NCBI GenBank assembly: GCA_964403345.1
Contig: CAYOGU010000002.1
Location: forward strand, 1 to 36,459
DNA: 36,459 nucleotides
Reading direction: 5' to 3'
Source of the DNA: an uncultured Syntrophus sp.
GTDB taxonomy: Bacteria; Desulfobacterota; Syntrophia; Syntrophales; UBA5619
Of the stretch, positions 6,150 through 36,180 are shown piece by piece (position 1 is the first letter of the stretch; the number at the start of each line of letters is the position of its first letter). A model generated the notes under the pieces. That model saw nothing but the letters and a program-made list of their open reading frames with translations. It was not told where the DNA came from and searched no databases. Both the position numbers and the translations under genes were made by a program.

Positions 6150-6203
6150 TTCACGGAAGCTTCACGGGGTTGTCATCGAATTGTAACAATCCTCCTCTAT
6201 GCT
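6150..6203 (+). promoter_or_regulatory. Putative Pho box (4 phased PhoB half-sites) plus -10, pstS promoter
   Basis: TTCAC 6150, TTCAC 6161, GTCAT 6172 and GTAAC 6183 are spaced exactly 11 bp apart. Ten nt later comes TATGCT (6198-6203). The site is 21 nt upstream of the pstS ATG region and its RBS GGAGAGG. Confidence 0.7.
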
Positions 6204-6223
6204 GTTCGGAGAGGTAATAAGAG

Positions 6224-7045
6224 ATGGAGAAAAGGGGTAGATTCATTTTGACGATGGCGGCGGGGCTCATCCTTGCGGCCGGCTCGGCCTCTGCGGACAG
6301 CGTACTGATCAAGGGATCCACGACGGTCCTGCCCATCGCCCAAGCGACCCTGGAGGCCTTCATGAAGGCGGATCCGGGTACGATGATCTCCCTGTCCGGC
6401 GGGGGGTCTGGCGAGGGGATCAAGGCGCTCATCGACGGCGTCGCGGACATCGCCATGTCCTCGCGGCAGCTCAAACCTGCGGAGGCGGAACTGGCCAAGG
6501 CCAGGGGGGTGAATCCCGTCGAGACAAAGGTAGCGATCGATGCCATCGTACCGATCGTCCATGTAGGGAATCCTGTGAACGACCTCAGCCTCGACCAACT
6601 CAGCCAGATCTACCAGGGGAAGATCACGAACTGGAAGGAGGTCGGCGGCCGGGACCTTCAGATTGTGCCGATCTCCAGGGACAGCAGTTCGGGGACCTTC
6701 GAGGCCTGGGGGGAACTGATCTTGAAGGGGGCCAAGGTCACGCCGCGGGCGCAGCTTCAGGCCTCCAACGGGGCTATCGTCCAGGCAGTATCGAAGAACC
6801 GGTATGCCCTGGGTTACATCGGGCTGGGATACCTGGACAAATTGGTGAAAGCCCTTTCGGTCAACGGTGTCCGGGCCTCGGAAAAGACGGCCAGCATGAG
6901 GACCTATCCGGTATCGAGGGCGCTGTATATGTTCACCAACGGTGAGCCCAAGGGCGATGCCCACCGATACATCCGGTTCGTCCTGAGCCCTGCGGGTCAA
7001 GCCCTGATCAGAAGGGAAGGATTTGTCTCCCTGTCAGGAAAATAG
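6224..7045 (+). CDS. pstS: Phosphate ABC transporter substrate-binding protein PstS (copy 1)
   Basis: It has a signal peptide (MEKRGRFILTMAAGLILAAGSASA). PstS-family motifs are present: IKGSTTVLP, SLSGGGSGEGIKAL, ISRDSSSGT. It heads the pstCAB-phoU genes. Confidence 0.92.
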   Translation: MEKRGRFILTMAAGLILAAGSASADSVLIKGSTTVLPIAQATLEAFMKADPGTMISLSGGGSGEGIKALIDGVADIAMSSRQLKPAEAELAKARGVNPVETKVAIDAIVPIVHVGNPVNDLSLDQLSQIYQGKITNWKEVGGRDLQIVPISRDSSSGTFEAWGELILKGAKVTPRAQLQASNGAIVQAVSKNRYALGYIGLGYLDKLVKALSVNGVRASEKTASMRTYPVSRALYMFTNGEPKGDAHRYIRFVLSPAGQALIRREGFVSLSGK

Positions 7046-7176
7046 CAGGCTGGAGATCATCGGAGTGCCGGTGGGATCGATGCCCTGCCTGGGTCCTTTC
7101 CGGGGTGTCGTGTTGGAAGCTTTTGCGTGGGCGGGATCGTCAAGGCCCGTCTTGTTTTGATACGGAAGAGGGGTTT

Positions 7177-8085
7177 ATGAACAGCGGACGAAGAGCGCTG
7201 ACCAGCAGGGCCAGGGAAATAATCATCAAAAATATCTTCGCCTTTTTTGCCTTCCTTTCTGTGCTCTTTCTGGGGCTCATCGTCTTTTTCCTCTTCCGTG
7301 AGGGACTCCCCCTCTTCAAAGAGATCAACCCGGTGCAGTTCCTCTTCGGGTCGTCCTGGTATCCCACGTACAATCCGCCGGAATACGGGATCTGGCCTTT
7401 GATCGTCGGCTCCGCGATCGTGACGGTCCTGGCTTGCCTCATCGCTGTTCCTTTCGGGCTCTGCTGCGCCGTCTATATCTCCGAGATCGCCCCGGCGCGG
7501 ATCAAGGAGATTCTTAAGTCCGTGATCGAGCTCCTGGCAGGCCTCCCTTCGGTTGTCCTGGGTTTCTTCGGGATGGTGATCCTGGGACCCTGGATGCAGG
7601 AGGCTTTCGATCTGCCCACGGGGCTCAACATCGTCAACGCTTCGATCATGCTGGCCGTCATGGCGATTCCCACCATATCGAGCATCTCGGAAGATGCTCT
7701 CTACGCCGTCCCTCGGGATTTTAAAGAGGCTTCCTACGCCTTGGGGGCAACTCGTTACGAGACGATCCTCCGGGTCTCGATCCCTGCTGCCCTCTCGGGG
7801 ATCTCCACGGCGGTGATCCTGGGGATGTCCCGGGCGATCGGGGAGACGATGGTGGTTCTCATGGTGGCCGGAGGCTCGGCGGCAGTCCCGCGGGGGATTT
7901 TCGATTCGGTGCGTCCCATGCCGGCCAGCATCGCTGCGGAGATGGGCGAAGCGCCCGTCGGGGGAGGCCATTACCATGCCCTCTTCGCCACAGGGATCGT
8001 TCTGTTGCTGATCACGCTCCTTTTCAACCTGATCGCCGATCACATCTCCCGCAGATTCAAAGAGGAGGGGTCGGGAACGTTATGA
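7177..8085 (+). CDS. pstC: Phosphate ABC transporter permease PstC
   Basis: Track ORF is 7105..8085. ATG 7177 follows GAAGAGGGG. It is a multi-TM permease with the EAA-type loop (EDALYAVPRDFKEASYALGATRYETI). Its stop overlaps the pstA ATG (ATGA at 8082-8085). Confidence 0.9.
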   Translation: MNSGRRALTSRAREIIIKNIFAFFAFLSVLFLGLIVFFLFREGLPLFKEINPVQFLFGSSWYPTYNPPEYGIWPLIVGSAIVTVLACLIAVPFGLCCAVYISEIAPARIKEILKSVIELLAGLPSVVLGFFGMVILGPWMQEAFDLPTGLNIVNASIMLAVMAIPTISSISEDALYAVPRDFKEASYALGATRYETILRVSIPAALSGISTAVILGMSRAIGETMVVLMVAGGSAAVPRGIFDSVRPMPASIAAEMGEAPVGGGHYHALFATGIVLLLITLLFNLIADHISRRFKEEGSGTL

Positions 8086-8963
8086 GCGCCTATAAACCAG
8101 TATCGTCCATGCAATGGCGTTATTTCAGACAGGGCCTCTTCTTCGGCGCGGTGCGGCTGGCAGCCTTCATTGTTACGGTGGCCCTCCTGGGCATCATCGC
8201 CTTTCTCCTGGTCAACGGGATCGGGGCCATCAGCTGGGGATTTCTTACGGAACCTCCATTGGATTCCATGACCAAAGGCGGGATCATGCCGGCCATCGTC
8301 GGGACCTTCTACCTGACCATCGGGGCGATCCTCGTTGCCCTCCCCCTGGGGGTGGCCTCGGCGATCTATCTGACGGAATATGCGAGGCAGGGGCTCTTCA
8401 TCCGGATCATCCGGATCGGCGTCAACTGCTTGGCCGGCGTCCCTTCCGTCGTCTTCGGCCTCTTCGGTCTTGGTTTTTTCGTCGTCTTCCTGAAATTCGG
8501 TTCCAGCATTCTTTCCGGCGCCTTGACTCTGGGGATTCTAATCCTCCCCACGATCATCGGGGCCGCGGAGGAGGCCCTCAAGGCCGTTCCCCAGACTTTC
8601 CGTGAGGCTTCTCTGGCCCTGGGCGTCTCCAAATGGCGAACCATATCCCGGGTTGTCCTCCCCTCGGCCCTGCCGGGGATCCTGACCGGGTCGATCCTGG
8701 GGATCGGACGCGCCGCCGGGGAGACGGCTCCCATCATGTTCACGGCGGCTGCCTTTTTCACAGCCGTTCTGCCGAAATCGGTCTTTGACGAGGTGATGGC
8801 TTTGCCCTATCATATCTATGTCCTGGCCACAGCGGGGACCCATATCGAGCAGACCCGCCCCCTGCAGTACGGAACGGCCCTGGTCCTGATCGTCCTGGTC
8901 CTGGGGATCGATCTGGTCGCCATCGTCCTGCGCGGCATGGCCCGGAAGAGGAAAAGGTGGTAG
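8082..8963 (+). CDS. pstA: Phosphate ABC transporter permease PstA
   Basis: It is a multi-TM permease carrying [26 protein letters not shown]. It is translationally coupled on both sides. Confidence 0.9.
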
Positions 8964-9727
8964 ATGTGGAAAAAGAGATGATCATCACGACTAAGAATGT
9001 GGATTTCTATTACGGTGCCTTCAGGGCCCTGACTGATGTGACGCTGGATTTTGAAAAGAACCGCGTCACCGCTTTGATCGGGCCGTCGGGTTGCGGCAAA
9101 TCAACACTCCTTCGGCTCCTCAACCGGATGAACGATCTCATCGACGGGACGCGGGTGGAGGGGGAGATCCTGTTCGAGGGGAAGAACATCTATGCCCCCG
9201 ACGTGGACCCCGTGGGGATCCGCCAGCGGATCGGGATGGTCTTCCAGAAGCCCAACCCCTTTCCAAAATCGATCTTCAACAATATCACCTTTGCCCCGAG
9301 ACTTTCCGGTGTCAGGAACAACGGCGATCTGGCGAACCTCGTGGAGGAGAGCCTCAAACAGGCGGTCCTGTGGGACGAGGTGAAAGACATCCTGGGAAAA
9401 TCTGCCATGACCCTCTCCGGCGGACAGCAGCAGCGCCTCTGCATCGCCAGGGCGCTGGCCATGAAGCCCGACGTCCTTTTGATGGACGAGCCGACCTCGG
9501 CGCTCGATCCAATCTCCACGGCGAAAATCGAAGAGCTCATCGACGAACTCAAGAGACGCTATACGATCATCATCGTGACGCACAACATGCAGCAGGCGGC
9601 TCGCGTATCGGAATACACCGGTTTTTTCTACCTGGGTAAGTTGATCGAATTCAACGCTACGGAAAAGATCTTCACCAACCCCGATGTGAAGCAGACTGAG
9701 GATTACATCACTGGTCGGTTCGGTTAG
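8957..9727 (+). CDS. pstB: Phosphate ABC transporter ATP-binding protein PstB
   Basis: Walker A is GPSGCGKST, the ABC signature is LSGGQQQRL, and Walker B is [11 protein letters not shown]. The PstB-type N-terminus reads NVDFYYG. The start is either GTG 8957 (overlapping the pstA stop) or ATG 8978. Confidence 0.92.
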
Positions 9728-9750
9728 GCGTCAGAGCCGAGGGAGGAACC

Positions 9751-10443
9751 ATGGAAGAAGCCAAGCGACATACCAGCGCGGAATACGAGCGTGAGCTCCA
9801 AGAGATACGGGACGGCCTGCTCTACATGGGGGCTCTGACGGAAAAGGCTTTGGAAAAAGGAATCACGGCGCTCGTGGAGAGAGACTCCGCACTGGCCAAA
9901 CAGGTCATCTGCGAAGACGACCAGGTCGACCGTCTCGATTTCGACTTGGAGGAGAAGTGCATTCGCCTTCTGGCTCTCCGCCAGCCCGCCGCCCGGGACC
10001 TGCGGTTCATCACGACATCGATCAAGATCACCGGCCATCTGGAGCGGATCGGCGACATGGCGGCCAACATCGCCGAGAAGGTCCTCATCCTCAACGAGAT
10101 TCCCCAGATCAAGGCCTACATCGATCTGCCGCGGATGGACCAGATCGTCCGGGGGATGATCCGCAGAAGCCTCGACGCTATGGTGAGCGAGGATGTGGAA
10201 CTGGCCCATCGGGTTCGGGAGGAGGATGTCATCATTGATCGGCTTAACGAGCAGATCTTCAGGGAACTGCTCACATTCATGATGGAAGATCCCCATAAGA
10301 TTCAGGTTTGCCTCTACATCATGCAGATCTCCAAGAGTCTCGAACGGATTGCCGATCACGCCGAGGGGATCGCAGACATGGTGATTTACATGATCACGGG
10401 AAAGAGCGTACGACACCAGCCGACTTGCGGACCGAAGGGATGA
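9751..10443 (+). CDS. phoU: Phosphate signalling complex protein PhoU
   Basis: It has two PhoU repeats with the motifs LERIGDMAANIAE and LERIADHAEGIAD. The RBS is GAGGGAGG. Its stop overlaps the phoR ATG (ATGA at 10440-10443). Confidence 0.92.
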   Translation: MEEAKRHTSAEYERELQEIRDGLLYMGALTEKALEKGITALVERDSALAKQVICEDDQVDRLDFDLEEKCIRLLALRQPAARDLRFITTSIKITGHLERIGDMAANIAEKVLILNEIPQIKAYIDLPRMDQIVRGMIRRSLDAMVSEDVELAHRVREEDVIIDRLNEQIFRELLTFMMEDPHKIQVCLYIMQISKSLERIADHAEGIADMVIYMITGKSVRHQPTCGPKG

Positions 10444-12197
10444 AGAGAAGACTCTCCTTCAAGTTCTTTGTCGTCTTCCTTACGATTGGGGGGACTGCGG
10501 CGCTGATCGCCGGGTTCCTGATCGACCGGGAGCTCAAGGGCGTCCTCATGCGCTGGAGCGAGGAAGAGATGGCGGCCGAAGCGCGTCTGATTGCCTTGAT
10601 TCCCCCGAATCAAGTGTCGGCGCGGATTGTGGAATTTTCAGAAAGTGCCGGCGCCAGGATAACCTTGCTTGACGCCGCCGGCCGGGTCCAGGCCGATTCC
10701 AACCCCGCCGCAATCGAGCCGGGGAACCATCTCTACCGGACGGAAGTCCAGGAAGCCCGCCTGAGGGGGGAGGGATCGGCGGTCCGTTACAGCCGGACCC
10801 TGTCGATCGAACTCCAGTATGTGGCCCTTGCCCTGACAGAGGGGGGGGAGATAAAAAGGTACATCCGCTTGGCTCGTCCCGTTCAGGATGTGGTCCGTTC
10901 CATGGAATCCTTCCGGCGGATTTTTCTGTGGGTGCTCGTTCCGGTCCTGTTCATTCCGCTCTTGCTCTGCCTGATCTACAGCATCCGAACGATTTCGCCC
11001 ATCGGGAAGCTGGTGGCCTTCACCGAAAAGGTACAAGTCGGACAGATTTCCGGGATGGTCAGGATTCCTTCCCGGGACGAGATCGGCGTCCTGGCCGCCA
11101 ACATCAACGGGATGGTCGAGGTCCTGCAGGAGAAGATCCACGCCGCTGATGGGGAAAAAAGAAAACTTCAGTCCCTCTTTACCGGTATGGTTGAAGGGAT
11201 CGTCGTCCTCGATGCCGGCGGACGGATCGAGACCCTCAACCGGGGAATGGAGGAGACGATCGGCCGGTCCCAGGGGGAACTCGTCGGCAGGACGCCCCTG
11301 GAGGCCTTCCGGAATATCGCACTCCAAGATGCCTTGGAGCGTTTCCGGCATTCGGGGACTCCAATTTTTCGCGAGATCACCATGGGGGATGAAAACCCGG
11401 TCGTGATGGACGTGACGCTTTCCGCCATCCGGGGGGAAGCCGGCGGAGAGGAGAAGACCCTGTTGGTCTTCCACGACGTGACGCGCCTGAAGAAACTCGA
11501 GCGCGTCCGCACAGACTTCGTGGCCAACGTCACCCACGAGATCCGGACTCCCCTGACGGCGATTATCGGTTTTGTGGAGACCCTCGAGCAAGGGGCTCTT
11601 GTGGACCGGGAGAAGACCTATAAGTTCCTGGCGACAATCCGCGAAAACGCCGAGCGGCTCAATCGCCTTGTGAACGACCTTCTGACCCTCTCCGGGATTG
11701 AGTTGGGCGAGGAAAATCTCCGTCTCGAACGGCTTTCCCTGGAAGGGGCCCTGGATGATGTCCTGGCCCTTGTGACCGCCCGGGTTATTGAGAAGAATCT
11801 GAAGCTCATCCGGGAGGTCCCGGAAGGACTGCCGCCCATCCGGGCCGACCGGGACCGGCTGACCCAGATCCTGCTCAACGTCCTGGACAACGCCGTCAAG
11901 TTTACACCGGCCGGCGGGTCTATCGCTGTCACGGCTGAACCCGGTGATGAGAGGACCCTGATCGTCCGGATCGCCGACACGGGTGTGGGCATCCCCAAGG
12001 GGGAGATCCCTCGGCTGGGCGAGCGGTTTTATCGGGCGGACAAGACGCGTTCACGGGAAATGGGGGGCACGGGCCTGGGGCTTTCGATCGTCAAACACCT
12101 GATGAAGGCCCATGGGGGACGGATGGCCATCGAGAGCACCCTGGGCCACGGCACCACGGTCTCGCTCCATTTTCCCCTCTATGAGGAGTCGACATGA
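10440..12197 (+). CDS. phoR: Phosphate-regulon sensor histidine kinase PhoR-like (TM - HAMP - PAS - HisKA - HATPase)
   Basis: Track ORF is 10308..12197. ATG 10440 gives MKRRLSFKFFVVFLTIGG (TM). The H-box is FVANVTHEIRTPLTAI. The N/G boxes are LLNVLDNAVKF and GGTGLGLSIVKHL. Its position between phoU and phoB supports the call. Confidence 0.88.
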   Translation: MKRRLSFKFFVVFLTIGGTAALIAGFLIDRELKGVLMRWSEEEMAAEARLIALIPPNQVSARIVEFSESAGARITLLDAAGRVQADSNPAAIEPGNHLYRTEVQEARLRGEGSAVRYSRTLSIELQYVALALTEGGEIKRYIRLARPVQDVVRSMESFRRIFLWVLVPVLFIPLLLCLIYSIRTISPIGKLVAFTEKVQVGQISGMVRIPSRDEIGVLAANINGMVEVLQEKIHAADGEKRKLQSLFTGMVEGIVVLDAGGRIETLNRGMEETIGRSQGELVGRTPLEAFRNIALQDALERFRHSGTPIFREITMGDENPVVMDVTLSAIRGEAGGEEKTLLVFHDVTRLKKLERVRTDFVANVTHEIRTPLTAIIGFVETLEQGALVDREKTYKFLATIRENAERLNRLVNDLLTLSGIELGEENLRLERLSLEGALDDVLALVTARVIEKNLKLIREVPEGLPPIRADRDRLTQILLNVLDNAVKFTPAGGSIAVTAEPGDERTLIVRIADTGVGIPKGEIPRLGERFYRADKTRSREMGGTGLGLSIVKHLMKAHGGRMAIESTLGHGTTVSLHFPLYEEST

Positions 12198-12898
12198 TGC
12201 AGAAGAGGATCCTCGTTGCCGACGACGAGAAGGACATCGTGGAACTGGTTGCCTACAATCTCGAACGGGAAGGATTCTCCGTCCTGAAGGCCTTGAATGG
12301 CGGAAGCGCCCTGGAATCGATCCGGCGTGACAAGCCGGACCTGGTCGTCTTGGACCTGATGATGCCCGGGGTATCGGGAACAGAGGTATGCCGGATCGTC
12401 CGGGGCATCCCCGAGACGGCGAATCTGCCCATTATCATGCTGACCGCCAAGTCCGAACCTGTGGACCGGATCCTGGGACTGGAGATCGGGGCGGACGACT
12501 ACCTTACCAAGCCTTTTCATGTTCGGGAGCTGATCGCCAGGGTCCGCGCCGTCCTGAGGCGATCGGATCAGCACCCAGAGGAAAACCTCCGGGAGTCTTT
12601 CGATTTCCAGGGGCTCCACGTCGATTTGAAGGCCTACCGCGTGACCCTCGAGGGCAGGGAGGTCGAGCTCAGTTCCCGCGAGTTCAAACTACTGCAATTC
12701 TTCATTGGCCATCCCGGCCGTGTTTACAGCCGCGAACAGCTTCTCGACCGCGTCTGGGGTGACGAGGCTTTTGTGGAACCCCGGACGGTGGATGTCCACA
12801 TCAGCCGCCTAAGGGGGGCAATCGAGGCGGACCCTTCGAACCCACGGTATATCCTGACCGTCCGCGGTATCGGCTACAAGTTCGCAGACGAAGCCTGA
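12194..12898 (+). CDS. phoB: OmpR-family response regulator PhoB-like
   Basis: The receiver domain reads ILVADDEKDI...DLVVLDLMMPG...LTAK. The winged-helix output domain reads LSSREFKLLQFF...VDVHISRLR...IRGIGYKF. Its start overlaps the phoR stop. Confidence 0.9.
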   Translation: MMQKRILVADDEKDIVELVAYNLEREGFSVLKALNGGSALESIRRDKPDLVVLDLMMPGVSGTEVCRIVRGIPETANLPIIMLTAKSEPVDRILGLEIGADDYLTKPFHVRELIARVRAVLRRSDQHPEENLRESFDFQGLHVDLKAYRVTLEGREVELSSREFKLLQFFIGHPGRVYSREQLLDRVWGDEAFVEPRTVDVHISRLRGAIEADPSNPRYILTVRGIGYKFADEA

Positions 12899-12920: not shown

Positions 12921-12974
12921 GTCATCCTTTATTCACGGGGCCTTCATCAAGGGATAACAATTCCGTTCTAGGAT
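12921..12974 (+). promoter_or_regulatory. Putative Pho box plus -10, promoter of the EAL-CBS-GGDEF gene
   Basis: GTCAT 12921, TTCAC 12932, TTCAT 12943 and ATAAC 12954 are spaced exactly 11 bp apart. Ten nt later comes TAGGAT (12969-12974). Confidence 0.6.
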
Positions 12975-25079: not shown

Positions 25080-25097
25080 ATCCCCAGGAGGTGCCGT

Positions 25098-25541: not shown

Positions 25542-25657
25542 AAGCGTCCGTGCGGAAGAAGCCCCTCGAAAAATAGCGCCTCTCCAAAAGGGAGAAGGCA
25601 ATCTGGCGCTGCTTAGGTATCGCCTGTTTTTCAGCACTTCATCAGGAGGTAAACAGT

Positions 25658-25957
25658 ATGGCAAGTCAACAATTGAAGGTCAAATCGAAAGTGGCATTGG
25701 TGGAAGTGATCAAACATCTGGAACACCTGGTGACATCCCTCAAGGAAGGTCAGCTCTGCATCCGGAAAAATGACGAGGTCATCAACCTGAAACCCCAGGA
25801 TCCGGTTACTTTCGAACTGGAGGCCGAGGCCAAGCTGGAGAAGGACAATCTGCGGGAGAAACTCGTCATCGAACTGAAATGGAAAAAGGGCGAGGCTGCG
25901 CCGATGGAAGGCGACAGTTTGTCCATCAGCCATCTTGATCCGGCGTCCGAACTCTGA
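25658..25957 (+). CDS. Small amphi-Trp-domain-like protein (paralog 3)
   Basis: The RBS is AGGAGG (25644-25649). The domain reads VIKHLEHLVTSLKEGQLCI ... INLKPQDPVTFELEA ... KLVIELKWKK. Confidence 0.72.
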   Translation: MASQQLKVKSKVALVEVIKHLEHLVTSLKEGQLCIRKNDEVINLKPQDPVTFELEAEAKLEKDNLREKLVIELKWKKGEAAPMEGDSLSISHLDPASEL

Positions 25958-26951: not shown

Positions 26952-27018
26952 ACGTGGTTGCGCTATGCTGCGAAGAGAGAAAGACGACGCGTTTCACATG
27001 AATGGATTCATCCATACC

Positions 27019-27670: not shown

Positions 27671-27728
27671 TGCGGTGGAAGCTGGAATCCCCGTGCGCAG
27701 GCCAATATCACCGCTTACTCTCTTAGCC

Positions 27729-28706
27729 ATGGGAAACACGAAACGATCCAGCATCGAAAGTGGCCCGTGTGTCCCGTATCCTTTTCGGGAATCGGTCGGA
27801 TGGCTCTGGCGGAACATCCGGGGCGTACGAAAGGCAAATCCTTCCGGCATCCAGGCGTTGCCCCGGGAAACGGTCCTGAATCCGATACAATCCCGGATTA
27901 CCCTGGGCGTCGTCGGCGACATCATGGCCATGGGCCATCAATCTCTCCACATCACGACCGATGTGCACCTCTTTTTCCAGGGATGCGACTGCCTGATCGG
28001 GAACATGGAAGGGACGGTGACCGGGACCGGTAGGCCCAGCCCCGGCGCTCAGAGACACAACCCCTCCATTCTGGATGTCTTGGCCGGACTGTTCCAGCCG
28101 GACCGCACGTTCCTGTCCGTAGCGAACAATCATGCGGGAGATTATCCGGCGACAACCTTCAAAAAGTCGATCAATCACATGCGTGATCGGGGATTCCATG
28201 TGTTCGGCCTCAGGGAAGAGCCTTTTGCCGATATCGCCGATGGCGTTCGGGTCTTCGGCGCCTCGATGTGGAGCAACCGGCCCTGCGGGGAGATCGCCTT
28301 CTTCGATGTCCTCGATGGATGCTCGGCCGGTGCGGCGGCCTTCTCCATAGTGTATCCGCATTGGGGATATGAGCTGGAGATGTTTCCACGGCCCGCGGTC
28401 GTTCGGATGGGAGAGGAGCTTCTGTCCAGGTATGATGCCATCCTGGGACATCATTCCCATGTCCCCCAGCCGATGTCCGTAGTGCGGAATGGCGTTGCGG
28501 CGAAACTCCTGGCCTTCTCCCTGGGTGATTTTTGCACCGGCCTCAGGCTAAAGAAATTCCAGTATGGCGTTGCCTGCAAAGTGGAGATCGGTCCAGGGGA
28601 AAACGGGATCTGGCGAATCGGTGCCGTTCGGTGGCGCTACACGCGTGTCTCGCCCGGTCCAGCCGGCAGCATGCAGCTCCGGTTGACATCGGCCCTTTCC
28701 CTCTGA
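27729..28706 (+). CDS. CapA/PgsA-family metallophosphoesterase-like protein
   Basis: Track ORF is 27585..28706. The upstream part is the tail of the MBL pseudogene in the same frame, so ATG 27729 is the likely start. Motifs are VVGDIM, SVANNHAGDY, YPHWGYE and GHHSHVPQ. Confidence 0.72.
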   Translation: MGNTKRSSIESGPCVPYPFRESVGWLWRNIRGVRKANPSGIQALPRETVLNPIQSRITLGVVGDIMAMGHQSLHITTDVHLFFQGCDCLIGNMEGTVTGTGRPSPGAQRHNPSILDVLAGLFQPDRTFLSVANNHAGDYPATTFKKSINHMRDRGFHVFGLREEPFADIADGVRVFGASMWSNRPCGEIAFFDVLDGCSAGAAAFSIVYPHWGYELEMFPRPAVVRMGEELLSRYDAILGHHSHVPQPMSVVRNGVAAKLLAFSLGDFCTGLRLKKFQYGVACKVEIGPGENGIWRIGAVRWRYTRVSPGPAGSMQLRLTSALSL

Positions 28707-28762: not shown

Positions 28763-28820
28763 GCAACCATCTATTAACGGCTCGGTCATCATTCTGCAAC
28801 ATCGTTGCGGTAACTATATA
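28763..28820 (+). promoter_or_regulatory. Putative Pho box plus -10, PIN-PhoH promoter
   Basis: GCAAC 28763, TTAAC 28774, GTCAT 28785 and GCAAC 28796 are spaced exactly 11 bp apart. Ten nt later comes TAACTA (28811), overlapping TATATA (28815-28820). Confidence 0.55.
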
Positions 28821-28872: not shown

Positions 28873-30246
28873 GTGGTGCAAAAAACCTATATCCTGGATA
28901 CGAACATTCTCCTGCACAACCCTCAGGCGATCTATGCCTTTGACGACAACGAAGTGGTGATTCCGCTGGCGGTCATCGAGGAGGTCGACCGCCAGAAGAG
29001 ACGACAGGACGAGATCGGGAAGAATGCCCGGGAGGTCTCCCGGGCCCTGGATGATCTGCGTGGAAAGGGGAGGCTTGCGGAGGGCGTGGTTCTGCCAGGA
29101 GGTGGTTCTCTCCGGATTGAGGTCAATCATTGGTCAAGCGGCGAGCTACCTGCGGGGATTGATTGGAGCCAGCCGGACAACCGGATCCTGGCGATCGCTT
29201 ATCAACTCCAGCGTGAGCGCTGCAATGTCCATCTGGTCACCAAGGACCTCAACCTCCGGATCAAGGCGGATGTGATCGGGATCGCTTCGGAGGATTTCTA
29301 CCGGGACAAGGTCCAATGCGCCGTTCTGTACGATGGAGCGGGGAATCGGAGCGTCACGGAAGCTCAGATTAATCTTTTTCACCGTACCAAGAAGTTGACC
29401 ATGCCCGAGGAATGGGGAGGATTGCCGAACCAGTTTTTCATCCTGAAGAATCCAGCCAATCCTTCCCAGTCGGCCTTGGGACGATGCCAGGACAATACCC
29501 TGGTGCCTTTGCTCCACGGTGACGTGGAGTGCTTCGGAATCAAGGCCCGCAACAAGGAGCAGCGGTTTGCCATGGACCTGCTTCTGAACGATCAGATCCG
29601 CGCCGTAACGCTCGTGGGAAGAGCCGGGACGGGAAAGACGTTGCTTGCTCTGGCCGTTGGGTTGCAGAAGGTACTCGATGAAAGGGTTTACTCCCGCCTG
29701 TTGATCACCCGCCCTGTGGTTCCGGTGGGAAACGACATCGGCTATCTGCCCGGTGACAAGGACGAGAAGATGCGGCCTTGGATGCAGCCGATCTTCGACA
29801 ACATCGAACACATCTTCAGCAACGTCCCGGATGCCAGGGAGGGACGCGGCAGGCTTCCTGCGAGCGGGAAGAACGGCCGGGAACCCGATGAGGAACGGAT
29901 GAAATCCCTGCGAATCGTCGAGCACCTTCTCGAAAGGGGTGTCTTGGAGATGGAACCCTTGACCTACATCCGGGGGCGGAGCATCCCCAGACAGTTCATC
30001 ATCTGCGACGAGGCACAGAATCTCAGTCCGCAGATGATCAAAACGATCGTCACCCGGATCGGGGAGGGATCGAAGATCGTGTTCACCGGCGATCCGGAAC
30101 AAATCGACCACCCCTACCTAGACGCGAGTAGCAACGGGTTGACCTATTTCGTGGAGCGATTCAAAGGCGAGAGGATTGCCGGCCATGTGACCCTCTGCAA
30201 AGGGGAACGTTCGGCCCTTGCCGAGTTGGGGGCGCAGATCCTCTGA
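28873..30246 (+). CDS. phoH2: PIN-domain / PhoH-like ATPase fusion (PhoH2/YlaK type)
   Basis: The RBS is AGGAGG, with GTG at 28873/28876. The PIN N-terminus reads YILDTNILLHNP...VIPLAVIEEVD. The PhoH P-loop is VGRAGTGKTLLALA, followed by FIICDEAQNL and FTGDPEQID. Confidence 0.88.
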   Translation: MVQKTYILDTNILLHNPQAIYAFDDNEVVIPLAVIEEVDRQKRRQDEIGKNAREVSRALDDLRGKGRLAEGVVLPGGGSLRIEVNHWSSGELPAGIDWSQPDNRILAIAYQLQRERCNVHLVTKDLNLRIKADVIGIASEDFYRDKVQCAVLYDGAGNRSVTEAQINLFHRTKKLTMPEEWGGLPNQFFILKNPANPSQSALGRCQDNTLVPLLHGDVECFGIKARNKEQRFAMDLLLNDQIRAVTLVGRAGTGKTLLALAVGLQKVLDERVYSRLLITRPVVPVGNDIGYLPGDKDEKMRPWMQPIFDNIEHIFSNVPDAREGRGRLPASGKNGREPDEERMKSLRIVEHLLERGVLEMEPLTYIRGRSIPRQFIICDEAQNLSPQMIKTIVTRIGEGSKIVFTGDPEQIDHPYLDASSNGLTYFVERFKGERIAGHVTLCKGERSALAELGAQIL

Positions 30247-30270: not shown

Positions 30271-30702
30271 ATGCCTGAAATCAACACTGTCGACGGCGTC
30301 GCCCGGGCGATACAATTGGCGATCGCCCCCGTTTTTTTGCTCAGTACCATTGCTCTGTTCATGAATGTCCTGACGAGCCGGCTCGGCCGCGTGATCGACC
30401 GGACCCGCGTTCTGGAGGAGAAGCTCCTTCATCCTCCGGCCTCAGGCACTGCTGGCCACCACACGGAGCTGGCAACGCTATCGAGGAGGGCCAAGCTGAT
30501 TGATTATGCCATTACCCTGTCCACCACGACCTCGCTCCTGGTCTGTGGTGTCATCGTTACCCTTTTCCTCGGGACCTTTCTCAACTTTAACATCAATATC
30601 ACTGTCATGGTCCTTTTCATCATGGCGATGCTATTCCTGGTCTTGGCGCTCCTGTGTCTGCTCCGGGAAATCCTGATCGCGACCCTGAATCTGATCCACT
30701 GA
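30271..30702 (+). CDS. DUF2721-like small membrane protein
   Basis: The RBS is AAGGAG. It reads AIQLAIAPVFLLSTIALFMNVLTSRLGRVIDRTR followed by two more TM helices. It lies 24 nt after phoH2, so it is probably co-transcribed. The family name is from memory. Confidence 0.65.
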   Translation: MPEINTVDGVARAIQLAIAPVFLLSTIALFMNVLTSRLGRVIDRTRVLEEKLLHPPASGTAGHHTELATLSRRAKLIDYAITLSTTTSLLVCGVIVTLFLGTFLNFNINITVMVLFIMAMLFLVLALLCLLREILIATLNLIH

Positions 30703-30724: not shown

Positions 30725-31582
30725 TCAGGTGCACCTCGTACGGATCACGGCGCTCAACCGGTCTACAAACGCCACGGTGAGGACGATGACGATCAGTATC
30801 GTGGTCACGTCTTGATTCTCGTAGCTCCGCAGCTTGTCGTAGAGATAGATCCCGATTCCCCCTGCGCCCGTAAATCCCAGGATCGTCGCAGAACGGACGT
30901 CGGACTCGAAACGGTAGAGCGTCATAGAGACGAAAAAAGGAGCGATCTGAGGGATGACGGCGTAGCGGATGACCTTCAATGGTCCGGCTCCGGTGGCCAT
31001 CAGGGCCGTGATCGGTTCGGTCTGGATGTTTTCGATGCCTTCGGAGAAGAGCTTGATCAGCACTCCCGAAGTGTGGACGCCCAGAGCCAGGATGCCGGGC
31101 ATAGGGCCCAGACCCACGGCCGATACGAAGATCAGGGCCCAGACCAGCTCGTTGATGGAACGCGACAGGTTTGCAAAAAAGCGGATCGCTGCGTACAGTG
31201 CTTTCCGGATCAGTCGGGACGGGATCCGCCTGCCTGGGATCATGATTTCCAAGGTGTTTCGCGAGGCTAAAAAGGCCAGCGGGAAGGCGATCACCACAGA
31301 GAGGATGAGGGCGAGCAGGGCCATCTGCACTGTTTCCAGCATGGAAAACAGGTATCTTCTAAGGCCGACCCCCTTTACACTCGGCGGGAAAAAACCACTC
31401 TCGGCGACCTCCGGGTTACCCCGGATATAGACGAGCATGTTTTGCCAGCCGTCAAGCATGGCCGAGACGCTCATCTGCGTCGACGTCCAGCTCCATGTGA
31501 CGACGGCAAGTGTGAGGATCAAGATGGCCAGGTTGAAGATGCTGAAGGGATTGGTCTTCTTCTTGATTTCAGTAAGAGACAT
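30725..31582 (-). CDS. phnE: Phosphonate ABC transporter permease PhnE
   Basis: Track ORF extends to 31639. ATG at c31582 follows GGAGAA and gives MSLTEIKKK.... It is a multi-TM permease with an EAA-type loop (IENIQTEPITALMATGAGPLKVI) and lies downstream of phnC and phnD. Confidence 0.85.
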   Translation of the reverse strand: MSLTEIKKKTNPFSIFNLAILILTLAVVTWSWTSTQMSVSAMLDGWQNMLVYIRGNPEVAESGFFPPSVKGVGLRRYLFSMLETVQMALLALILSVVIAFPLAFLASRNTLEIMIPGRRIPSRLIRKALYAAIRFFANLSRSINELVWALIFVSAVGLGPMPGILALGVHTSGVLIKLFSEGIENIQTEPITALMATGAGPLKVIRYAVIPQIAPFFVSMTLYRFESDVRSATILGFTGAGGIGIYLYDKLRSYENQDVTTILIVIVLTVAFVDRLSAVIRTRCT

Positions 31583-31659
31583 GGCTTCTGTTCTCCGGTG
31601 AGAGGCGGGACGACCCGCGTTCCGCCTCTCCGGCGGCAAAGGGGAGGAAAAGGGTGCCG

Positions 31660-32532
31660 CTACCTTTTCATCTTCTTTTGGACGTCCATCAAGTCCCGGA
31701 TAGTGTTATAGGTTTTGTCCGCCACAGGAGCGTATCCCTTGATCTTGAGCTGATCCAGTCCTGTTGCATCGTTATAGGCCAGGAAGGCTTCGGTAAGGGC
31801 GTTTTTGAGCGTTGACGGCAGGTCTTTGCGGTAGGCCATAGGAGCGCCCGGGATCAACGGCGATGTCCAAATGATCTCGAAGTCTTTTTCCGCATTCCAC
31901 TGCTTGCCGTTTCCGCGGGCCATATCGAGATCGTTGGTTGAAGCGGCGTCGATTTTGCCTGTTTTGACCGAAAGCATAGAGGCCTCGTGGCTGCCGGAGT
32001 AGATGACTTTCGAGAAATATTTTTCCGGATCGATCTTCAGTTCGTTGAGGAAGTGGACCATGGGGACAAGCGTGCCGCTCGTGGAATTGGGATCCACGAA
32101 AGCCCACACCCTGCCCTTCAGGTCGGCCATGCTCTTGAGACCGGAGCCCTTCTTGGTGATGATGAGCCCGTGGTAACCTTGCGTTCCGTCCTTTCCAACC
32201 TCGATGACGAAGGCCTCCGCGTTAGCGCGAGCGGCGGCCTCGACATAGGACTTGGGTCCGAAGTAAGCCAGGTCGATATGCTTGAACTGCATGCCTGTAA
32301 TGACCCCGGCATAGTCTGTGGCAACCTTGACTTCGACCGGCACGCCGAGCTTCTTCTCAAGGTATTTCACGAGATTGTCAAATCGTTCGGTGATGTTTGC
32401 CGATGAGTCCGTCGGGATGCTGCCGAGGACAAGCTTTTTGGGCCAGTCGGCCGGAGGCGTGGCAAACGCCGGGCTGGTGACGGCGATCAGACTGAAGGCC
32501 AGGGCGGCCGCTACAGCAATTGTTCTCTTCAT
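31660..32532 (-). CDS. phnD: Phosphonate/phosphite ABC transporter substrate-binding protein PhnD
   Basis: It has a signal peptide (MKRTIAVAAALAFSLIAVTSPAFA). The PhnD-type core reads LVLGSIP...YAGVITGMQFKHIDLAYFGPKSYV...DPNSTSG. Confidence 0.88.
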   Translation of the reverse strand: MKRTIAVAAALAFSLIAVTSPAFATPPADWPKKLVLGSIPTDSSANITERFDNLVKYLEKKLGVPVEVKVATDYAGVITGMQFKHIDLAYFGPKSYVEAAARANAEAFVIEVGKDGTQGYHGLIITKKGSGLKSMADLKGRVWAFVDPNSTSGTLVPMVHFLNELKIDPEKYFSKVIYSGSHEASMLSVKTGKIDAASTNDLDMARGNGKQWNAEKDFEIIWTSPLIPGAPMAYRKDLPSTLKNALTEAFLAYNDATGLDQLKIKGYAPVADKTYNTIRDLMDVQKKMKR

Positions 32533-32569
32533 GGGCTCCTCCTTACAGGATCTGGTTATGGGTGTGGAC

Positions 32570-33388
32570 TTACGCGCTCACCGCCGCTTCCGGTACAAAC
32601 GGTCGGTAGGGCACACTGCTTTCGATCCATTCGTCGTGGCCGTCTTCGCCGGAGCCATTATAAATCTCTCTGACCACCTCGTCGGTCAGGGACGCCGGAT
32701 TGCCATCGAAGACGATGCCACCGCCGCGAATTCCAAGGATGCGGGTACAGTAATTTTGTGCGTAGTCGAGTTGGTGAAGGTTGGAAATAATGGTAATTCC
32801 ATATATTTCGTTAACCGTTTTGAGTGTGTTCATGACACGCCTTGCACTCATGGGATCAAGTGACGAGATGGGCTCATCGGCCAGGATGATTTGCGGTTCC
32901 TGGGCCATGGCCCGGGCGATGGCCACGCGCTGCATCTGTCCTCCGGAGAGTTGATCGCAGCGCTGCAGGGCAGCCTCTTCGAGGCCGACAATGCGCATGA
33001 GCTCCCAGATCTTGTCGTACTGCTTTGGTGTGTAATATTTGAGCATTGTCGATAGAAAGTGCATACGGCAGAGCATTCCGCAGGCGATGTTGTCCACCAC
33101 GGTCATGCGTTTAACTAGGTTGAAGCCCTGGAAGATGCTTCCGATGCGTGAGCGGAGAACCTTGAGGGAGGCATTGGCGATCCGGTGGACTGGCTCACCA
33201 AGGACGTAAAGCTCGCCACCCAAGATTGGGACGCTGGCGTTGAGCGACATGAGCAGGGTCGATTTCCCTGCACCGGAAGGACCGATGATGCTGATGAATT
33301 CACCCTTCTGAATCTTCAGGGTTACGTCCGGAAGAACGATTCGCCTTCCGTAGCCCAGGGCAAGGGCTTTCGCTTCGATTTGAATCAT
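32570..33388 (-). CDS. phnC: Phosphonate ABC transporter ATP-binding protein PhnC
   Basis: Walker A is GPSGAGKSTLL, the ABC signature is LSGGQMQRVAIARA, and Walker B is ILADEPISSLD. Confidence 0.9.
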   Translation of the reverse strand: MIQIEAKALALGYGRRIVLPDVTLKIQKGEFISIIGPSGAGKSTLLMSLNASVPILGGELYVLGEPVHRIANASLKVLRSRIGSIFQGFNLVKRMTVVDNIACGMLCRMHFLSTMLKYYTPKQYDKIWELMRIVGLEEAALQRCDQLSGGQMQRVAIARAMAQEPQIILADEPISSLDPMSARRVMNTLKTVNEIYGITIISNLHQLDYAQNYCTRILGIRGGGIVFDGNPASLTDEVVREIYNGSGEDGHDEWIESSVPYRPFVPEAAVSA

Positions 33389-33439: not shown

Positions 33440-33493
33440 AATATAGGGCAGGGATGTTACAGGACGATGACGGATGTGCTAAGTTTTGGTGAT
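33440..33493 (-). promoter_or_regulatory. Putative Pho box plus -10, phnCDE promoter (minus strand)
   Basis: On the minus strand the pentamers are ATCAC (c33489-33493), TTAGC (c33478-33482), GTCAT (c33467-33471) and GTAAC (c33456-33460), at exact 11-bp phasing. Ten nt later comes TATATT (c33440-33445). Confidence 0.62.
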
Positions 33494-33598: not shown

Positions 33599-34442
33599 CT
33601 AGGGATGTGCACACCTTTTTGTCTTTTCTTCGCCGTCCGTTTGGTGAACTCCTATCAGCCAACTCTTTCGCAAGGGCCTTCATCTGCCCAGCCTGGGCAT
33701 TGAGTTCCTCGGCGGTGCTTGCCGATCCCTCGGGGTTGGCTGACGTCTGATGAACAATCCGGTCCATCTTGGATAGGGTTTTGCCGATCTACTGGATTCC
33801 CTGCACCTGCTCGTGAGACGCAGAGACAATCTCCTCCACCAAGGCTCCGACTCTGTCGGAGATGGTGACATTCTCCCGGAAAGCCTCCTAGCCCGCGCTA
33901 AATTGCAGCTCTTGCGGCCCGTGGCGATCGCGTGTTTTCAATGAGGGATTCGGTGTTCCTTGCGGCTTCTGCCGCCCTCATAGGCAGATTTCTCACCTCG
34001 TCGGCCACCAGCGCGAATCCGACACCGGACTCGCCGGGCCGGGCGGCTTCGACGGCCGGCGCCGGTTTTCCCGTTGTCCGGGAAAGGTAGACATTGGAAA
34101 CGTTTATTTCCCCTTTCTGGGCCTTCTGGAAATAGTCGCGATCCGCCAACTTGATCTTTCTTATGGAATCCGGCATCGATGAAACTTGGACCTCCCCCTG
34201 GACCGTGGCAATCGGGACATCGGAAAGATCGGGATCTTTTGGATCTGCTCGGCCAGTATGATATTGGCCGCCTTCCTCGTTTCATCGGTATCGTTCTTCA
34301 ACACGGCTTCATATTCGCTCCTTGCGGCAGAGGCGCTGGTCCTGCCTTTGGCATTTTGCGCCACTCGTCGATCAGTTCTGCCTTTGATTTTGAGATCATC
34401 GCGAGTTATGGACAGCATCATCCTGTTAAGACCCAGCTTCAT
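33599..34442 (-). pseudogene. Remnant of a methyl-accepting chemotaxis protein (internal deletion, nonsense, frameshifts)
   Basis: Minus-strand pieces are as follows. A Cache-like segment ([31 protein letters not shown]) joins directly to the MCP hairpin-tip motif [24 protein letters not shown]. Then, in another frame, comes VEEIVSASHEQVQGIQ*IGKTLSKMDRIVHQTSANPEGSASTAEELNAQAGQMKAL, with TAG where Gln is expected. No TM2 or HAMP region is present. Confidence 0.65.
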
Positions 34443-34631
34443 GTGAACCTTTCGTCTGTGAAGTGGGCTCAGAAAATCAAAGGGTCAAGACTAGCCTTTT
34501 GCACTTTCAACGTGCCTCAGCTAGAGCAGCCCCTTTCGTTTTTATGACAGTCTAGGTTCAGGATATTGCAGAGTGATGTAGGGATCGTGAATGCTTGATG
34601 AATCCCGCCGGTCTGGGAAGCGGTCCCTATG

Positions 34632-34685
34632 TTTACGGAAGATTCATGGATCCGTCATCATCCTGTAACAATGATCCCCTATATT
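34632..34685 (+). promoter_or_regulatory. Putative Pho box plus -10, pstS copy-2 promoter
   Basis: TTTAC 34632, TTCAT 34643, GTCAT 34654 and GTAAC 34665 are spaced exactly 11 bp apart. Ten nt later comes TATATT (34680-34685). It is nearly superimposable on the 6150 and 33456 sites. Confidence 0.7.
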
Positions 34686-34714: not shown

Positions 34715-35539
34715 ATGAAAAGATTCTTCAAACAGTTGGCGCTGGTTGCGGCACTTTGGGTGTTCGGTGCCGGAGCAGCCATTGCAGACAACGTCGTAAT
34801 CAAGGGGTCGACGACGGTCCTGCCCATCGCCCAAGCGACCCTGGAGGCCTACATGAAGGCTAATCCGGGGGCGAAGATCTCCCTTTCAGGCGGGGGATCG
34901 GGCGAAGGGATCAAGGCCCTGATCGACGGCTCGACGGATATCGCCAATTCATCCCGGGAGATCAAGAAGATGGAGTCGGATCTAGCCAAATCCAAAGGGG
35001 TGAATCCTGTGGAGACGGTGGTGGCGATCGACGCCATCGTTCCGATCGTGAACCCGAAAAATCCGGTAAACAACCTCAACCTTGATCAGTTGAACCAGAT
35101 CTACCAGGGAAAAATCACCAACTGGAAAGAGGTGGGGGGTGAGGACCTCGACATCGTGGTGATCTCCCGGGACAGCAGCTCCGGGACCTTCGAGGCCTGG
35201 GGTGAGTTGGTCCTGAAGGGAGCCAAGGTTACGCCTCGGGCGCAGCTGCAGGCTTCCAACGGGGCCATTGTCCAGACTGTGTCGAAGAACAAGTACGCTC
35301 TGGGGTACATCGGCTTGGGTTACCTGGACAAGACAGTGAAAGGCCTGTCGGTCAACGGGGTCCAGGCCAGCGAGAAGACAGCCCTTTCCAAAGAGTATCC
35401 TGTCTCCCGGTTCCTCTACATGTACACCAACGGGGAGCCCAAGGGCGAGACGGCTAAGTATCTCAAATTCGTCCTGAGTGCAGCGGGCCAGGCACTGGTC
35501 CAGAGAGAGGGGTTTGTCCCCCTGCCGAACAAGAAGTAA
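34715..35539 (+). CDS. pstS: Phosphate-binding protein PstS (copy 2, orphan)
   Basis: The RBS is GAGGAGG. By eye, roughly four fifths of residues are identical to the 6224..7045 product (IKGSTTVLPIAQATLEA, SLSGGGSGEGIKALIDG, ISRDSSSGTFEAWGEL, GAKVTPRAQLQASNGAIVQ). It has its own signal peptide and no adjacent permease genes. Confidence 0.92.
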   Translation: MKRFFKQLALVAALWVFGAGAAIADNVVIKGSTTVLPIAQATLEAYMKANPGAKISLSGGGSGEGIKALIDGSTDIANSSREIKKMESDLAKSKGVNPVETVVAIDAIVPIVNPKNPVNNLNLDQLNQIYQGKITNWKEVGGEDLDIVVISRDSSSGTFEAWGELVLKGAKVTPRAQLQASNGAIVQTVSKNKYALGYIGLGYLDKTVKGLSVNGVQASEKTALSKEYPVSRFLYMYTNGEPKGETAKYLKFVLSAAGQALVQREGFVPLPNKK

Positions 35540-35580
35540 AGAAGGCCATCGTCAGCCCCCTTTGTTAGAAGAACTCGACG

Positions 35581-35614
35581 CAGAGACAGGTCTTTGAGAG
35601 GCCTGTCTCTGTTT
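35581..35614 (+). terminator. Rho-independent terminator after pstS copy 2
   Basis: CAGAGACAGG (35581-35590) pairs with CCTGTCTCTG (35602-35611), extendable by a G-U and a G-C pair. TTTGG follows. Confidence 0.6.
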
Positions 35615-35645
35615 GGCGGGTCCATTTTCGGTCCGGAGCGTAGTG

Positions 35646-36005
35646 GTGGGAAAGCAAAAGGTTCTATTCATCTGTATCCGTAACGGCGCCCGCTCTCAAA
35701 TGGCGGAGGCCTGGCTGAATGCCCTCTACGGAGACCGGTTCGAGGCGAAAAGTGCCGGGATCGAACCCGGGGACTTGAACCCGCTGGTTGTCACGGCGAT
35801 GGACGAGGTGGGGGTCGATATCTCTCAAAACCGAGCAAAGAGCGTCAAGGATTTTCTAATGGCAGGCGAATCCTTTTCATGGATCATCACCGTCTGTGAT
35901 GAAGCGGCCGGTGAGCGTTGCCCGTTCTTCTCGGGGAATGCCAACCGCCTCCACTGGAACTTTCCCGACCCGGAGCTCCTGGCCGGCACACTGAGGAGAG
36001 GATGA
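35646..36005 (+). CDS. arsC: Arsenate reductase, LMW-PTP/thioredoxin-coupled type, with apparent 3' frameshift
   Basis: The CX5R(S) loop is [16 protein letters not shown] and the second Cys pair is [13 protein letters not shown]. The likely start is GTG 35646 behind GGAGCG (track: TTG 35613). The expected C-terminus continues in the +1 frame to TAG 36074-36076 ([23 protein letters not shown]). Confidence 0.75.
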
Positions 36006-36126
36006 ACGCCATGCGAAGGAGCAGGGGTGACATCGGGACCGCGGTCAGAAATTGGGGGACCTTCCTCGGACTCTAGTTCTCAATCTCCATCTTGGCCGTC
36101 TCTCACCCAAGCCCCAGCGGCATCGT

Positions 36127-36180
36127 TTCATCCAATCTTCATGGATCAGTCATCATGGCTTCACAGTTCCCTGTTAAGAT
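36127..36180 (+). promoter_or_regulatory. Putative Pho box plus -10, psd promoter
   Basis: TTCAT 36127, TTCAT 36138, GTCAT 36149 and TTCAC 36160 are spaced exactly 11 bp apart. Ten nt later comes TAAGAT (36175-36180). Confidence 0.6.

Follow-up and report, generated by a model that had tools for sequence, protein, structure and literature searches.

A cluster of nine transcription units headed by putative Pho boxes in an uncultured Syntrophus species

Nine promoters of one architecture

We analyzed a 36,459-bp stretch of DNA (58.5% G+C; hereafter the window) from contig CAYOGU010000002.1 of an uncultured Syntrophus species, in which nine promoters share one rigid architecture: four pentameric units at exact 11-bp phasing, followed 10 nt further on by a hexamer that resembles a -10 element. 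These putative Pho boxes are very probably operators for the PhoB/PhoP-family response regulator encoded in the same window (12194-12898). The genes downstream include Pho-type genes (two copies of pstS, phnCDE, and phoH2) as well as the operon of the GAK system, a gene for an unannotated 813-aa protein (u813), and genes for an EAL-GGDEF protein and a phosphatidylserine-decarboxylase-like protein (psd).

Six of the nine boxes lie on the forward strand. Box 1 (6150-6203; TTCAC/TTCAC/GTCAT/GTAAC, hexamer TATGCT; 32.3 bits with a leave-one-out matrix, as for the other scores of boxes 1 to 8) precedes pstS1; box 2 (12921-12974; GTCAT/TTCAC/TTCAT/ATAAC, TAGGAT; 20.1 bits) the EAL-GGDEF gene; box 4 (18693-18749; TTCAT/TTAAC/GTCAT/GTTAC, TTGGAT; 28.2 bits) the GAK operon; box 5 (28763-28816; GCAAC/TTAAC/GTCAT/GCAAC, TAACTA; 19.2 bits) phoH2; box 7 (34632-34685; TTTAC/TTCAT/GTCAT/GTAAC, TATATT; 45.9 bits) pstS2; and box 8 (36127-36180; TTCAT/TTCAT/GTCAT/TTCAC, TAAGAT; 38.5 bits) psd. 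On the minus strand are box 3 of the u813 gene (18513-18566; TTCAC/TTCAT/GTCAT/GTCAC, TAGAAA; 25.1 bits), box 6 of phnC (33440-33493; ATCAC/TTAGC/GTCAT/GTAAC, TATATT; 31.1 bits), and a ninth site (34549-34602, with its repeats at c34602-34565; TTCAT/TTCAC/TACAT/GCAAT, TAGACT; 16.9 bits), which is divergent from, and back-to-back with, the pstS2 promoter. The initial annotation had overlooked this ninth site; its eight sites, read back from the sequence, all agree in letters and coordinates. The unit core can be written (T/G)TCA(C/T), repeated directly every 11 bp in all nine sites. The third pentamer is GTCAT in seven of them and nearly always extends to GTCATC, and the fourth is invariably followed by an A, giving a GTAACA-like unit.

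The hexamers at the strict 10-nt gap are TAnnnT-like, with T at the first position in all nine, A at the second in eight, and T at the sixth in seven. The spacing to the -10, a check proposed in the initial annotation, is therefore fixed, and its wording of "usually 10 nt" was right about the distance and too cautious about its regularity. Two of the -10 elements proposed there did not survive comparison with related genomes (introduced below, with their handles). For the u813 promoter TATAGA had been chosen, whereas the hexamer 10 nt from the repeats in the L030 and L111 orthologs is TAGAAG, which favors TAGAAA at that distance in the window. Similarly, GATAAT had been read as the -10 of the GAK promoter, but the equivalent promoters in L110, L115, and L116 lack it and have TTTGAT, TTAATT, and TTTACT at the 10-nt offset; TTGGAT, at this offset in the window, is accordingly favored over GATAAT, which lies at 13 nt. 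The phoH2 promoters have a poor -10 in every genome (TAACTA, TAACTG, TACCCA, TTTTCA, TTTTCT), while their Pho boxes are among the best conserved. A sigma-70 consensus scan that requires a -35 element reported none of the nine promoters, which fits activator-dependent promoters.

A weight matrix was built from the four-unit sites, training on seven of the eight initial sites, scoring the eighth, and scanning both strands of the window. The left-out sites scored 19.2-45.9 bits, and the only positions in the window that outscored a left-out site were the training sites themselves. The highest score in 100 dinucleotide-preserving shuffles of the whole window, again on both strands, was 16.6 bits, below every left-out site. 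The window holds exactly nine operators, each of four units; a scan with units 3 and 4 alone found no isolated half-sites and no secondary sites within genes. All nine lie in the non-coding 12% of the window (88% is coding) and face the adjacent gene.

Conservation of the repeats in related genomes

The closest relative compared is L001, a deltaproteobacterial metagenome-assembled genome of about 94% protein identity, which retains all four of the sites it overlaps. Across three alignable intergenic regions, 1 of 80 pentamer positions differs, compared with 5 of 72 spacer positions and 83 of 418 positions in other intergenic DNA (Fisher p = 2.6e-6), indicating that purifying selection acts on the repeats more strongly than on the intergenic DNA around them.

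More distant loci were retrieved through homologs of PhoB, u813, and the GAK kinase and scanned with the matrix trained on the window alone. This matrix recovered sites in 8-9 further genomes, at orthologous genes in rearranged contexts. In L030, whose PhoB is 75% identical, two back-to-back sites at 8126 (minus strand) and 8134 face u813 and phoH2-PGA_cap, respectively, and further sites precede genes for a 607-aa unknown protein, a PsiE-family protein, and an ArsC-like protein; L031 (PhoB 56% identical) has one site, between phoB and pstS. Among the loci found through u813, L110 has boxes at u813, at an operon for a double amphi-Trp protein, PGA_cap, PhoH2, and DUF2721, and at the EAL-GGDEF gene. 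L111 has them at pstS, PhoH2, u813, LMWPc, and psd, and a six-repeat operator (8255-8277, minus strand) upstream of a gene for a 1126-aa alkaline-phosphatase/metallophosphatase fusion, with the four promoter-proximal units again 10 nt from a hexamer, TATAAG. Boxes in L112 precede a 243-aa gene and PHO4, an operon of u813, psd, dksA, a 522-aa gene, PhoH2, LGT, and a hydrolase, and EAL-GGDEF; those in L114 precede a 495-aa gene with PhoH2, an operon of u813, psd, dksA, LGT, EAL, DUF3047, and a hydrolase, and pstS. The loci found through the GAK kinase, L115-L117, have boxes at GAK, a small DUF3562 gene, pstS, PhoH2, PGA_cap, alkaline phosphatase, and psd. The Geobacteraceae locus L113, with 104 nt upstream of its u813 gene, was left out of the box scan.

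Box by box, the EAL-GGDEF site (box 2) is kept in L001 and has equivalents in L110 and L112, four genomes with the window. The u813 site (box 3) has orthologs in L001, L030, L110, L111, L112, and L114, seven genomes in all. The GAK site (box 4) is kept in L001, and equivalents precede GAK in L115 (27.4 bits) and L116 (11.9 bits). The phoH2 site (box 5) is identical in L001 and has orthologs in L030, L111, L115, and L116. The pstS2 site (box 7) has equivalents at pstS in L031, L111, L114, L116, and L117, giving a pstS box in six genomes, and the psd site (box 8) in L111 and L117. Other classical targets are boxed at alkaline phosphatase (L111 and L116), PHO4 (L112), and psiE (L030). The hexamer was not included in the matrix, yet TA stands at the 10-nt offset in 14 of the 20 distinct sites identified with it in other genomes. 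Related loci (0.10 Mb) contain 22 matches above 15 bits and unrelated loci (1.01 Mb) 5, of which at least two adjoin phoB or pstS. The motif tracks classical Pho genes in other genomes and appears to define a conserved extended regulon. The initial annotation had also predicted that several genes not classically in the Pho regulon belong to it; in keeping with this, the boxes at EAL-GGDEF, GAK, u813, and psd recur in relatives.

The regulator and the case for Pho control

The window encodes a histidine kinase and response regulator directly downstream of pstSCAB-phoU, an arrangement shared with L110 and L111. Gene context supports their assignment as PhoR and PhoB, while the curated equivalog thresholds are not reached. 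The elements themselves show the features expected of Pho boxes: 11-bp tandem repeats, a related core, a distance of about 10 bp to the -10, and conservation at core Pho genes. The reading of the initial annotation thus draws support from the core and its 11-bp geometry, the pst-linked two-component pair, the classical Pho genes downstream, the cross-genome sites, and the evolutionary footprint.

We propose that each operator is occupied by two regulator dimers, their four monomers arranged head-to-tail along the same face of the DNA, a stoichiometry suggested by analogy. The phosphorylated regulator would occupy the -35 position and RNA polymerase would depend on it, as at E. coli pstS; such dependence is probable, given the 10-nt distance from the promoter-proximal repeat to the -10 and the lack of a -35. 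Under inorganic phosphate (Pi) limitation, PhoR would phosphorylate PhoB and the nine adjacent transcription units would be switched on. The first of these, pstS1CAB-phoU-phoRB, would make the system autoregulated; the others are EAL-GGDEF with a hydrolase, the u813 gene, the GAK operon, phoH2-DUF2721, phnCDE, an MCP remnant, pstS2 with an arsC-like gene, and psd with dksA-like and LGT-like genes. In this scheme we infer the identity and stoichiometry of the bound protein, activation rather than repression, and Pi as the signal.

Several observations weigh against this reading. The response regulator has PhoB (TIGR02154) as its best NCBIfam model, with 280.9 bits where the cut-off is 296.2, and MtrA and RegX3 as its closest solved relatives. 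For the histidine kinase, PnpS (the best) and WalK models outscore proteobacterial PhoR, all of them below their cut-offs. Three -10 hexamers are weak (TTGGAT, TAACTA, TAGAAA). The pstS1 and pstS2 promoters have the spacer bases ACGGAAG in common and may be paralogous copies, not independent observations. The frequency of sites outside Pho genes rests on about 100 kb of related flanks. Finally, L116 has a strong site (28.3 bits, at 2289 on the minus strand) that faces, in antisense orientation, the end of a response-regulator gene, with no called gene downstream.

Two alternatives bear on these points. The shared spacer is what would be expected had a promoter cassette been duplicated, and one could suppose that all the sites arose in this way, by chance, or as a small repeat element without regulatory meaning. 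This explanation is effectively refuted: the spacers of the remaining sites differ while their pentamers are kept, the changes relative to L001 avoid the pentamers, the left-out sites score far above every shuffle, and the sites stand at orthologous genes in rearranged contexts in other genomes. The second alternative assigns the operators to a different regulator of the OmpR/PhoB family, one with another trigger (envelope stress or general nutrient stress, for example), whose regulon would include the phosphate genes among others. The response regulator does score slightly below the PhoB equivalog cut-off and resembles MtrA, RegX3, and YycF about as well, and many of the targets (EAL-GGDEF, GAK, u813, psd) are not classical Pho genes. 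We nevertheless consider this alternative improbable. The regulator gene follows pstSCAB-phoU and the kinase gene in three genomes, the motif precedes pstS, phnC, alkaline phosphatase, PHO4, psiE, and phoH2 across ten genomes, and both core and geometry match those of Pho boxes. RegX3 is, moreover, itself the Pi-responsive regulator of mycobacteria (PMC4415409).

The GAK system

The GAK operon (18780-25957, forward strand; NCBIfam, Pfam) encodes, in order, a 380-aa unknown protein, an amphi-Trp protein, a PhoU-APH kinase (20212-21849), the GAK ATP-grasp protein, HprK-related kinase B, the GAK CofD-like protein, and two further amphi-Trp proteins. Membership in the system is clear: the ATP-grasp, HprK-related kinase B, CofD-like, and amphi-Trp proteins are encoded together and score above all four NCBIfam cut-offs (TIGR04356, 402.5 with a cut-off of 300; TIGR04355, 453.7 with 200; TIGR04357, 502.7 with 340; TIGR04354, 61.9 with 31). 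As to the first gene, a TTG at 18741 that opens a 393-aa open reading frame overlaps the -10, and an ATG at 18780 is preceded by GGAGAAGAGGGA; the gene probably starts at the latter. The same core operon is found in L002-L023, which belong to the Myxococcota, Phycisphaerae, Eisenbacteria, Pseudomonadales, and Roseibium. Cultured carriers of GAK include Desulfonatronum species, Desulfolutivibrio sulfoxidireducens (CP045508.1), Desulfocarbo indianensis, and Roseibium sp. MMSF_3412. The kinase of the window and all of its listed homologs have an N-terminal PhoU domain.

In L115 and L116 the gene divergent from GAK is not u813 but a small DUF3562 gene (8130-8470 and 8161-8482, respectively), and the box nonetheless lies directly upstream of GAK; because the divergent neighbor differs, the GAK box is not simply one inherited intergenic region. 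The DUF3562 gene has its own Pho box in both loci. In L117, GAK again lies in a Pho cluster, among PhoH2, pstS, LMWPc, and psd. L110, on the other hand, lacks the GAK core. There, a gene for a 223-aa fused double amphi-Trp protein (8985-9656), homologous to the 147-aa and 99-aa amphi-Trp proteins that end the GAK operon of the window, heads a Pho-box operon with PGA_cap, PhoH2, and DUF2721. The -10 region of this L110 promoter, which lies opposite u813 (AATTTGATGATTTGAT), resembles that of the GAK promoter in the window (AGTTTGATGATTGGAT). A promoter of the same type, followed by amphi-Trp genes and no GAK core, suggests that the Pho promoter is the older of the two and that the GAK core was later inserted behind it.

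Such an insertion raises the possibility that only the core boxes (pstS1, pstS2, phnC, phoH2) work and that boxes of other units (GAK, the MCP remnant, EAL-GGDEF, or u813) persist as relics, either inherited or hitch-hiking. That the ninth box precedes an apparently decayed MCP gene would agree with this, as would the outcome of our scans in other phyla. There, no convincing Pho-type repeats were found upstream of GAK operons in L002-L023 or in L118 (Desulfolutivibrio), whether with the window matrix, with a degenerate pattern of 4 x 11, or with the E. coli-type TGTCAT-N5-TGTCAT (at most two mismatches, or three-unit scoring). A TGTAAA series upstream of GAK in L010, with weak 11-bp periodicity, fell below threshold and was not counted. 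Against the relic explanation stand the boxed GAK operons of L115 and L116 with their different divergent neighbor, the Pho cluster around GAK in L117, the PhoU domain in all listed homologs of the kinase, and the number of genomes with a u813 box (seven) or an EAL-GGDEF box (four). The pentamers at GAK and u813 are, in addition, unchanged relative to L001 while the DNA between these two boxes has diverged by about 20%. We regard it as rather unlikely that these boxes are relics.

In the Pseudomonadales, Eisenbacteria, Myxococcales, and Roseibium (L007-L022) the GAK core is accompanied by a gene of a 511-aa family, found by tblastn, with a metallophosphoesterase-like motif identified by eye, and an apparent histidine phosphatase with an RHG motif, also read by eye, is encoded near GAK in L009 and L007. 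These neighbors point to phospho-ester chemistry. The NCBIfam models of the GAK proteins are hypothetical equivalogs without a function. Our literature search found no paper describing the system, and the one paper found on amphi-Trp merely lists it as an abundant protein; as far as we have found, no link between GAK and the Pho regulon has been reported before.

The u813 family

The u813 gene (16024-18465, minus strand) has no Pfam or NCBIfam match, and a PDB profile search returned nothing below E = 0.9. The AlphaFold2 model has a mean pLDDT of 64, with the conserved core (290-540) below 50, probably because the alignment of 30 sequences is too shallow; with this low-confidence model, Foldseek against the PDB gave no match below E = 1. 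The family is large and well conserved. Among 8000 candidates scored, 2948 matched at E <= 1e-5, with homologs named Syntrophales, Syntrophaceae, Geobacteraceae, or Thermodesulfobacteriota and an identity of about 60% across the order. In L112, L113, L114, and L115, u813 adjoins or shares an operon with psd-like, DksA-like, and LGT-like genes, and it may, by these neighbors, have a lipid-related role.

It is possible, though we put this forward tentatively, that the cluster reveals two uncharacterized pathways of Pi starvation, both conserved parts of the regulon of Syntrophales-like bacteria. GAK would be a phosphate-status-controlled system that makes or modifies a phospho-compound or protein, and u813, with the psd-like, LGT-like, DksA-like, and alpha/beta hydrolase proteins, would act in membrane-lipid remodeling or phosphorus salvage. 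If so, one promoter motif would provide the first functional handle on both an orphan NCBIfam system and an unannotated protein family. The promoter mechanism is textbook, and finding it here is a confirmation; the value lies in the regulon content of an uncultured syntrophic lineage from anaerobic digesters, where phosphate limitation bears on digester performance and syntrophic metabolism. The Pho-box matrix should be transferable among Syntrophales-like genomes, and a testable condition, Pi limitation, is now attached to GAK, u813, PIN-PhoH2, and EAL-GGDEF. Phosphate regulation of the PIN-PhoH2 helicase has often been doubted, and the EAL-GGDEF protein would couple Pi status to c-di-GMP.

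Gene content of the cluster and its flanks

The gene map is based on Pfam and NCBIfam profile searches of the open reading frames of the window; Rfam and tRNA scans found no RNA genes in it. Directly upstream of pstS1 lie two multihaem cytochrome genes (601-6077) without a Pho box, one of them fused to a cytochrome b561-like domain. The first unit, pstS1-pstC-pstA-pstB-phoU-phoR-phoB (6224-12898, forward strand; Pfam, NCBIfam), has a gene order shared with L110 and L111, and its PhoU scores 215.6 bits, above the NCBIfam cut-off. The phoR reading frame opens at a TTG (10308) that overlaps phoU; since PhoR of the relatives is 585 aa long, the real start is probably near 10440. The second unit comprises the genes for the EAL-GGDEF-CBS protein (13086-14924) and an alpha/beta hydrolase (15016-15996), both on the forward strand and assigned by Pfam, and both recurring in the Pho clusters of L110, L112, L114, L115, and L116.

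Downstream of the GAK operon are genes for CorA, a metallo-beta-lactamase fragment, and the CapA-like PGA_cap protein (26028-28706, forward strand; Pfam). The half-site scan of the window found no Pho box belonging to this stretch, the only one without a clear promoter, and it would be transcribed either by read-through from the GAK promoter or from another promoter. PGA_cap is part of Pho-box units in L030, L110, and L115. The metallo-beta-lactamase fragment (102 aa, within 27039-27857) is followed by about 500 nt without a called gene and is 73% identical to its counterpart in L001, compared with about 94% for neighboring genes; it is probably a pseudogene remnant inside the cluster.

The phoH2 unit encodes PIN-PhoH2 (28873-30246) and DUF2721 (30271-30702), both on the forward strand and identified with Pfam and NCBIfam. 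It is followed on the minus strand by phnC-phnD-phnE (30725-33388; Pfam), a phosphonate ABC transporter. Downstream of the ninth box are short overlapping reading frames (33898-34442, minus strand), of which 33898-34176 carries only an MCP signaling-domain fragment; they probably represent a decayed chemoreceptor gene that has retained an intact Pho promoter. On the forward strand, pstS2 (34715-35539) forms one unit with the gene for an ArsC-like (thioredoxin-type) low-molecular-weight phosphatase (35613-36005), both assigned by Pfam and NCBIfam, a pairing that could couple arsenate detoxification to high-affinity Pi uptake. The ArsC-like LMWPc gene has its own Pho box in L030 (11537-12053) and L111 (3877-4600). 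The 5' part of psd (36204-36459, forward strand) runs past the end of the window; in the source contig its operon continues with a DksA-like and then an LGT-like gene, and a matrix scan of the next roughly 7 kb past that operon (AsmA, pyruvate kinase, and others) found no Pho sites.

From position 6150 to about 2.2 kb past the end of the window, some 32 kb, no gene lies outside a Pho-box-headed unit, and about 30 genes form one contiguous cluster. The "super-island" of the initial annotation is thus borne out as an unbroken series, of nine units instead of eight. The G+C content of the cluster (0.55-0.60) is modestly lower than that of its flanks (0.61-0.66), the tRNA scan found no tRNA, and no integrase or transposase domain was present among the Pfam matches of the window. 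Composition, mobility genes, and tRNA sites do not mark a horizontally acquired genomic island here, and 'island' stands for co-located members of a regulon and not for mobile DNA. Loci from across the order (L110-L112 and L114-L117) have this gene set clustered as well, with the genes rearranged.

Comparison with known Pho systems

Our literature search found nothing relevant on Pho boxes in deltaproteobacterial groups, and the closest comparisons come from other bacteria. A Pho box consists of two 11-nt direct repeats, with the core CTGTCAT in E. coli and GTTCAY in Streptomyces, and Pho operators hold two to six or more such units (PMC4415409, PMC2275107). The E. coli box takes the place of the -35 element, close to the -10 (PMC4971064). 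The E. coli pstS promoter (CTGTCATAAAA/CTGTCATATTC/CTTACATATAA/CTGTCACCTGT, TTGTCC, TATTTT) directly precedes pstS in 5423 of 5426 complete genomes; the window matrix, placed on it in the matching register, gives 8.9 bits. Like the promoters of the window, it has four 11-bp units, a GTCAT/GTCAC core, 10 nt to its TATTTT, and no -35. The window core, however, lacks the conserved 5' CT of CTGTCAT, and the spacers of the window are rich in G+C where those of E. coli are rich in A/T. A single two-unit box serves many E. coli Pho promoters, whereas all nine promoters of the window have four units. The rigid architecture seen here thus corresponds to the classical double Pho box; what is unusual is its full four-unit form in all nine promoters, side by side.

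The PhoP operators of Streptomyces coelicolor, built of two to six 11-nt units of the form G(G/T)TCAYYYR(G/C)G, have a core, GTTCAY, that is nearly identical to ours (PMC2275107). The six units of the alkaline-phosphatase operator in L111 parallel the Streptomyces range. In Streptomyces, unit number and position vary widely and repression is possible, whereas in the window both number and position are fixed.

The PhoP core binding region of Bacillus subtilis, known from the Hulett laboratory, has four TT(A/T/C)ACA repeats about 11 bp apart that are needed for two dimers. The GTAACA-like fourth repeat of all nine boxes resembles these, in a host of the Thermodesulfobacteriota lineage. For the EAL-GGDEF unit a parallel may exist in Pseudomonas fluorescens, where Monds et al. 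in 2007 are said to have found RapA, an EAL c-di-GMP phosphodiesterase, under direct Pho control, which ties c-di-GMP signaling to Pi limitation. The protein encoded behind box 2, a candidate counterpart that differs from RapA in its EAL-CBS-GGDEF architecture, would likewise be an EAL protein linked to Pho by its promoter.

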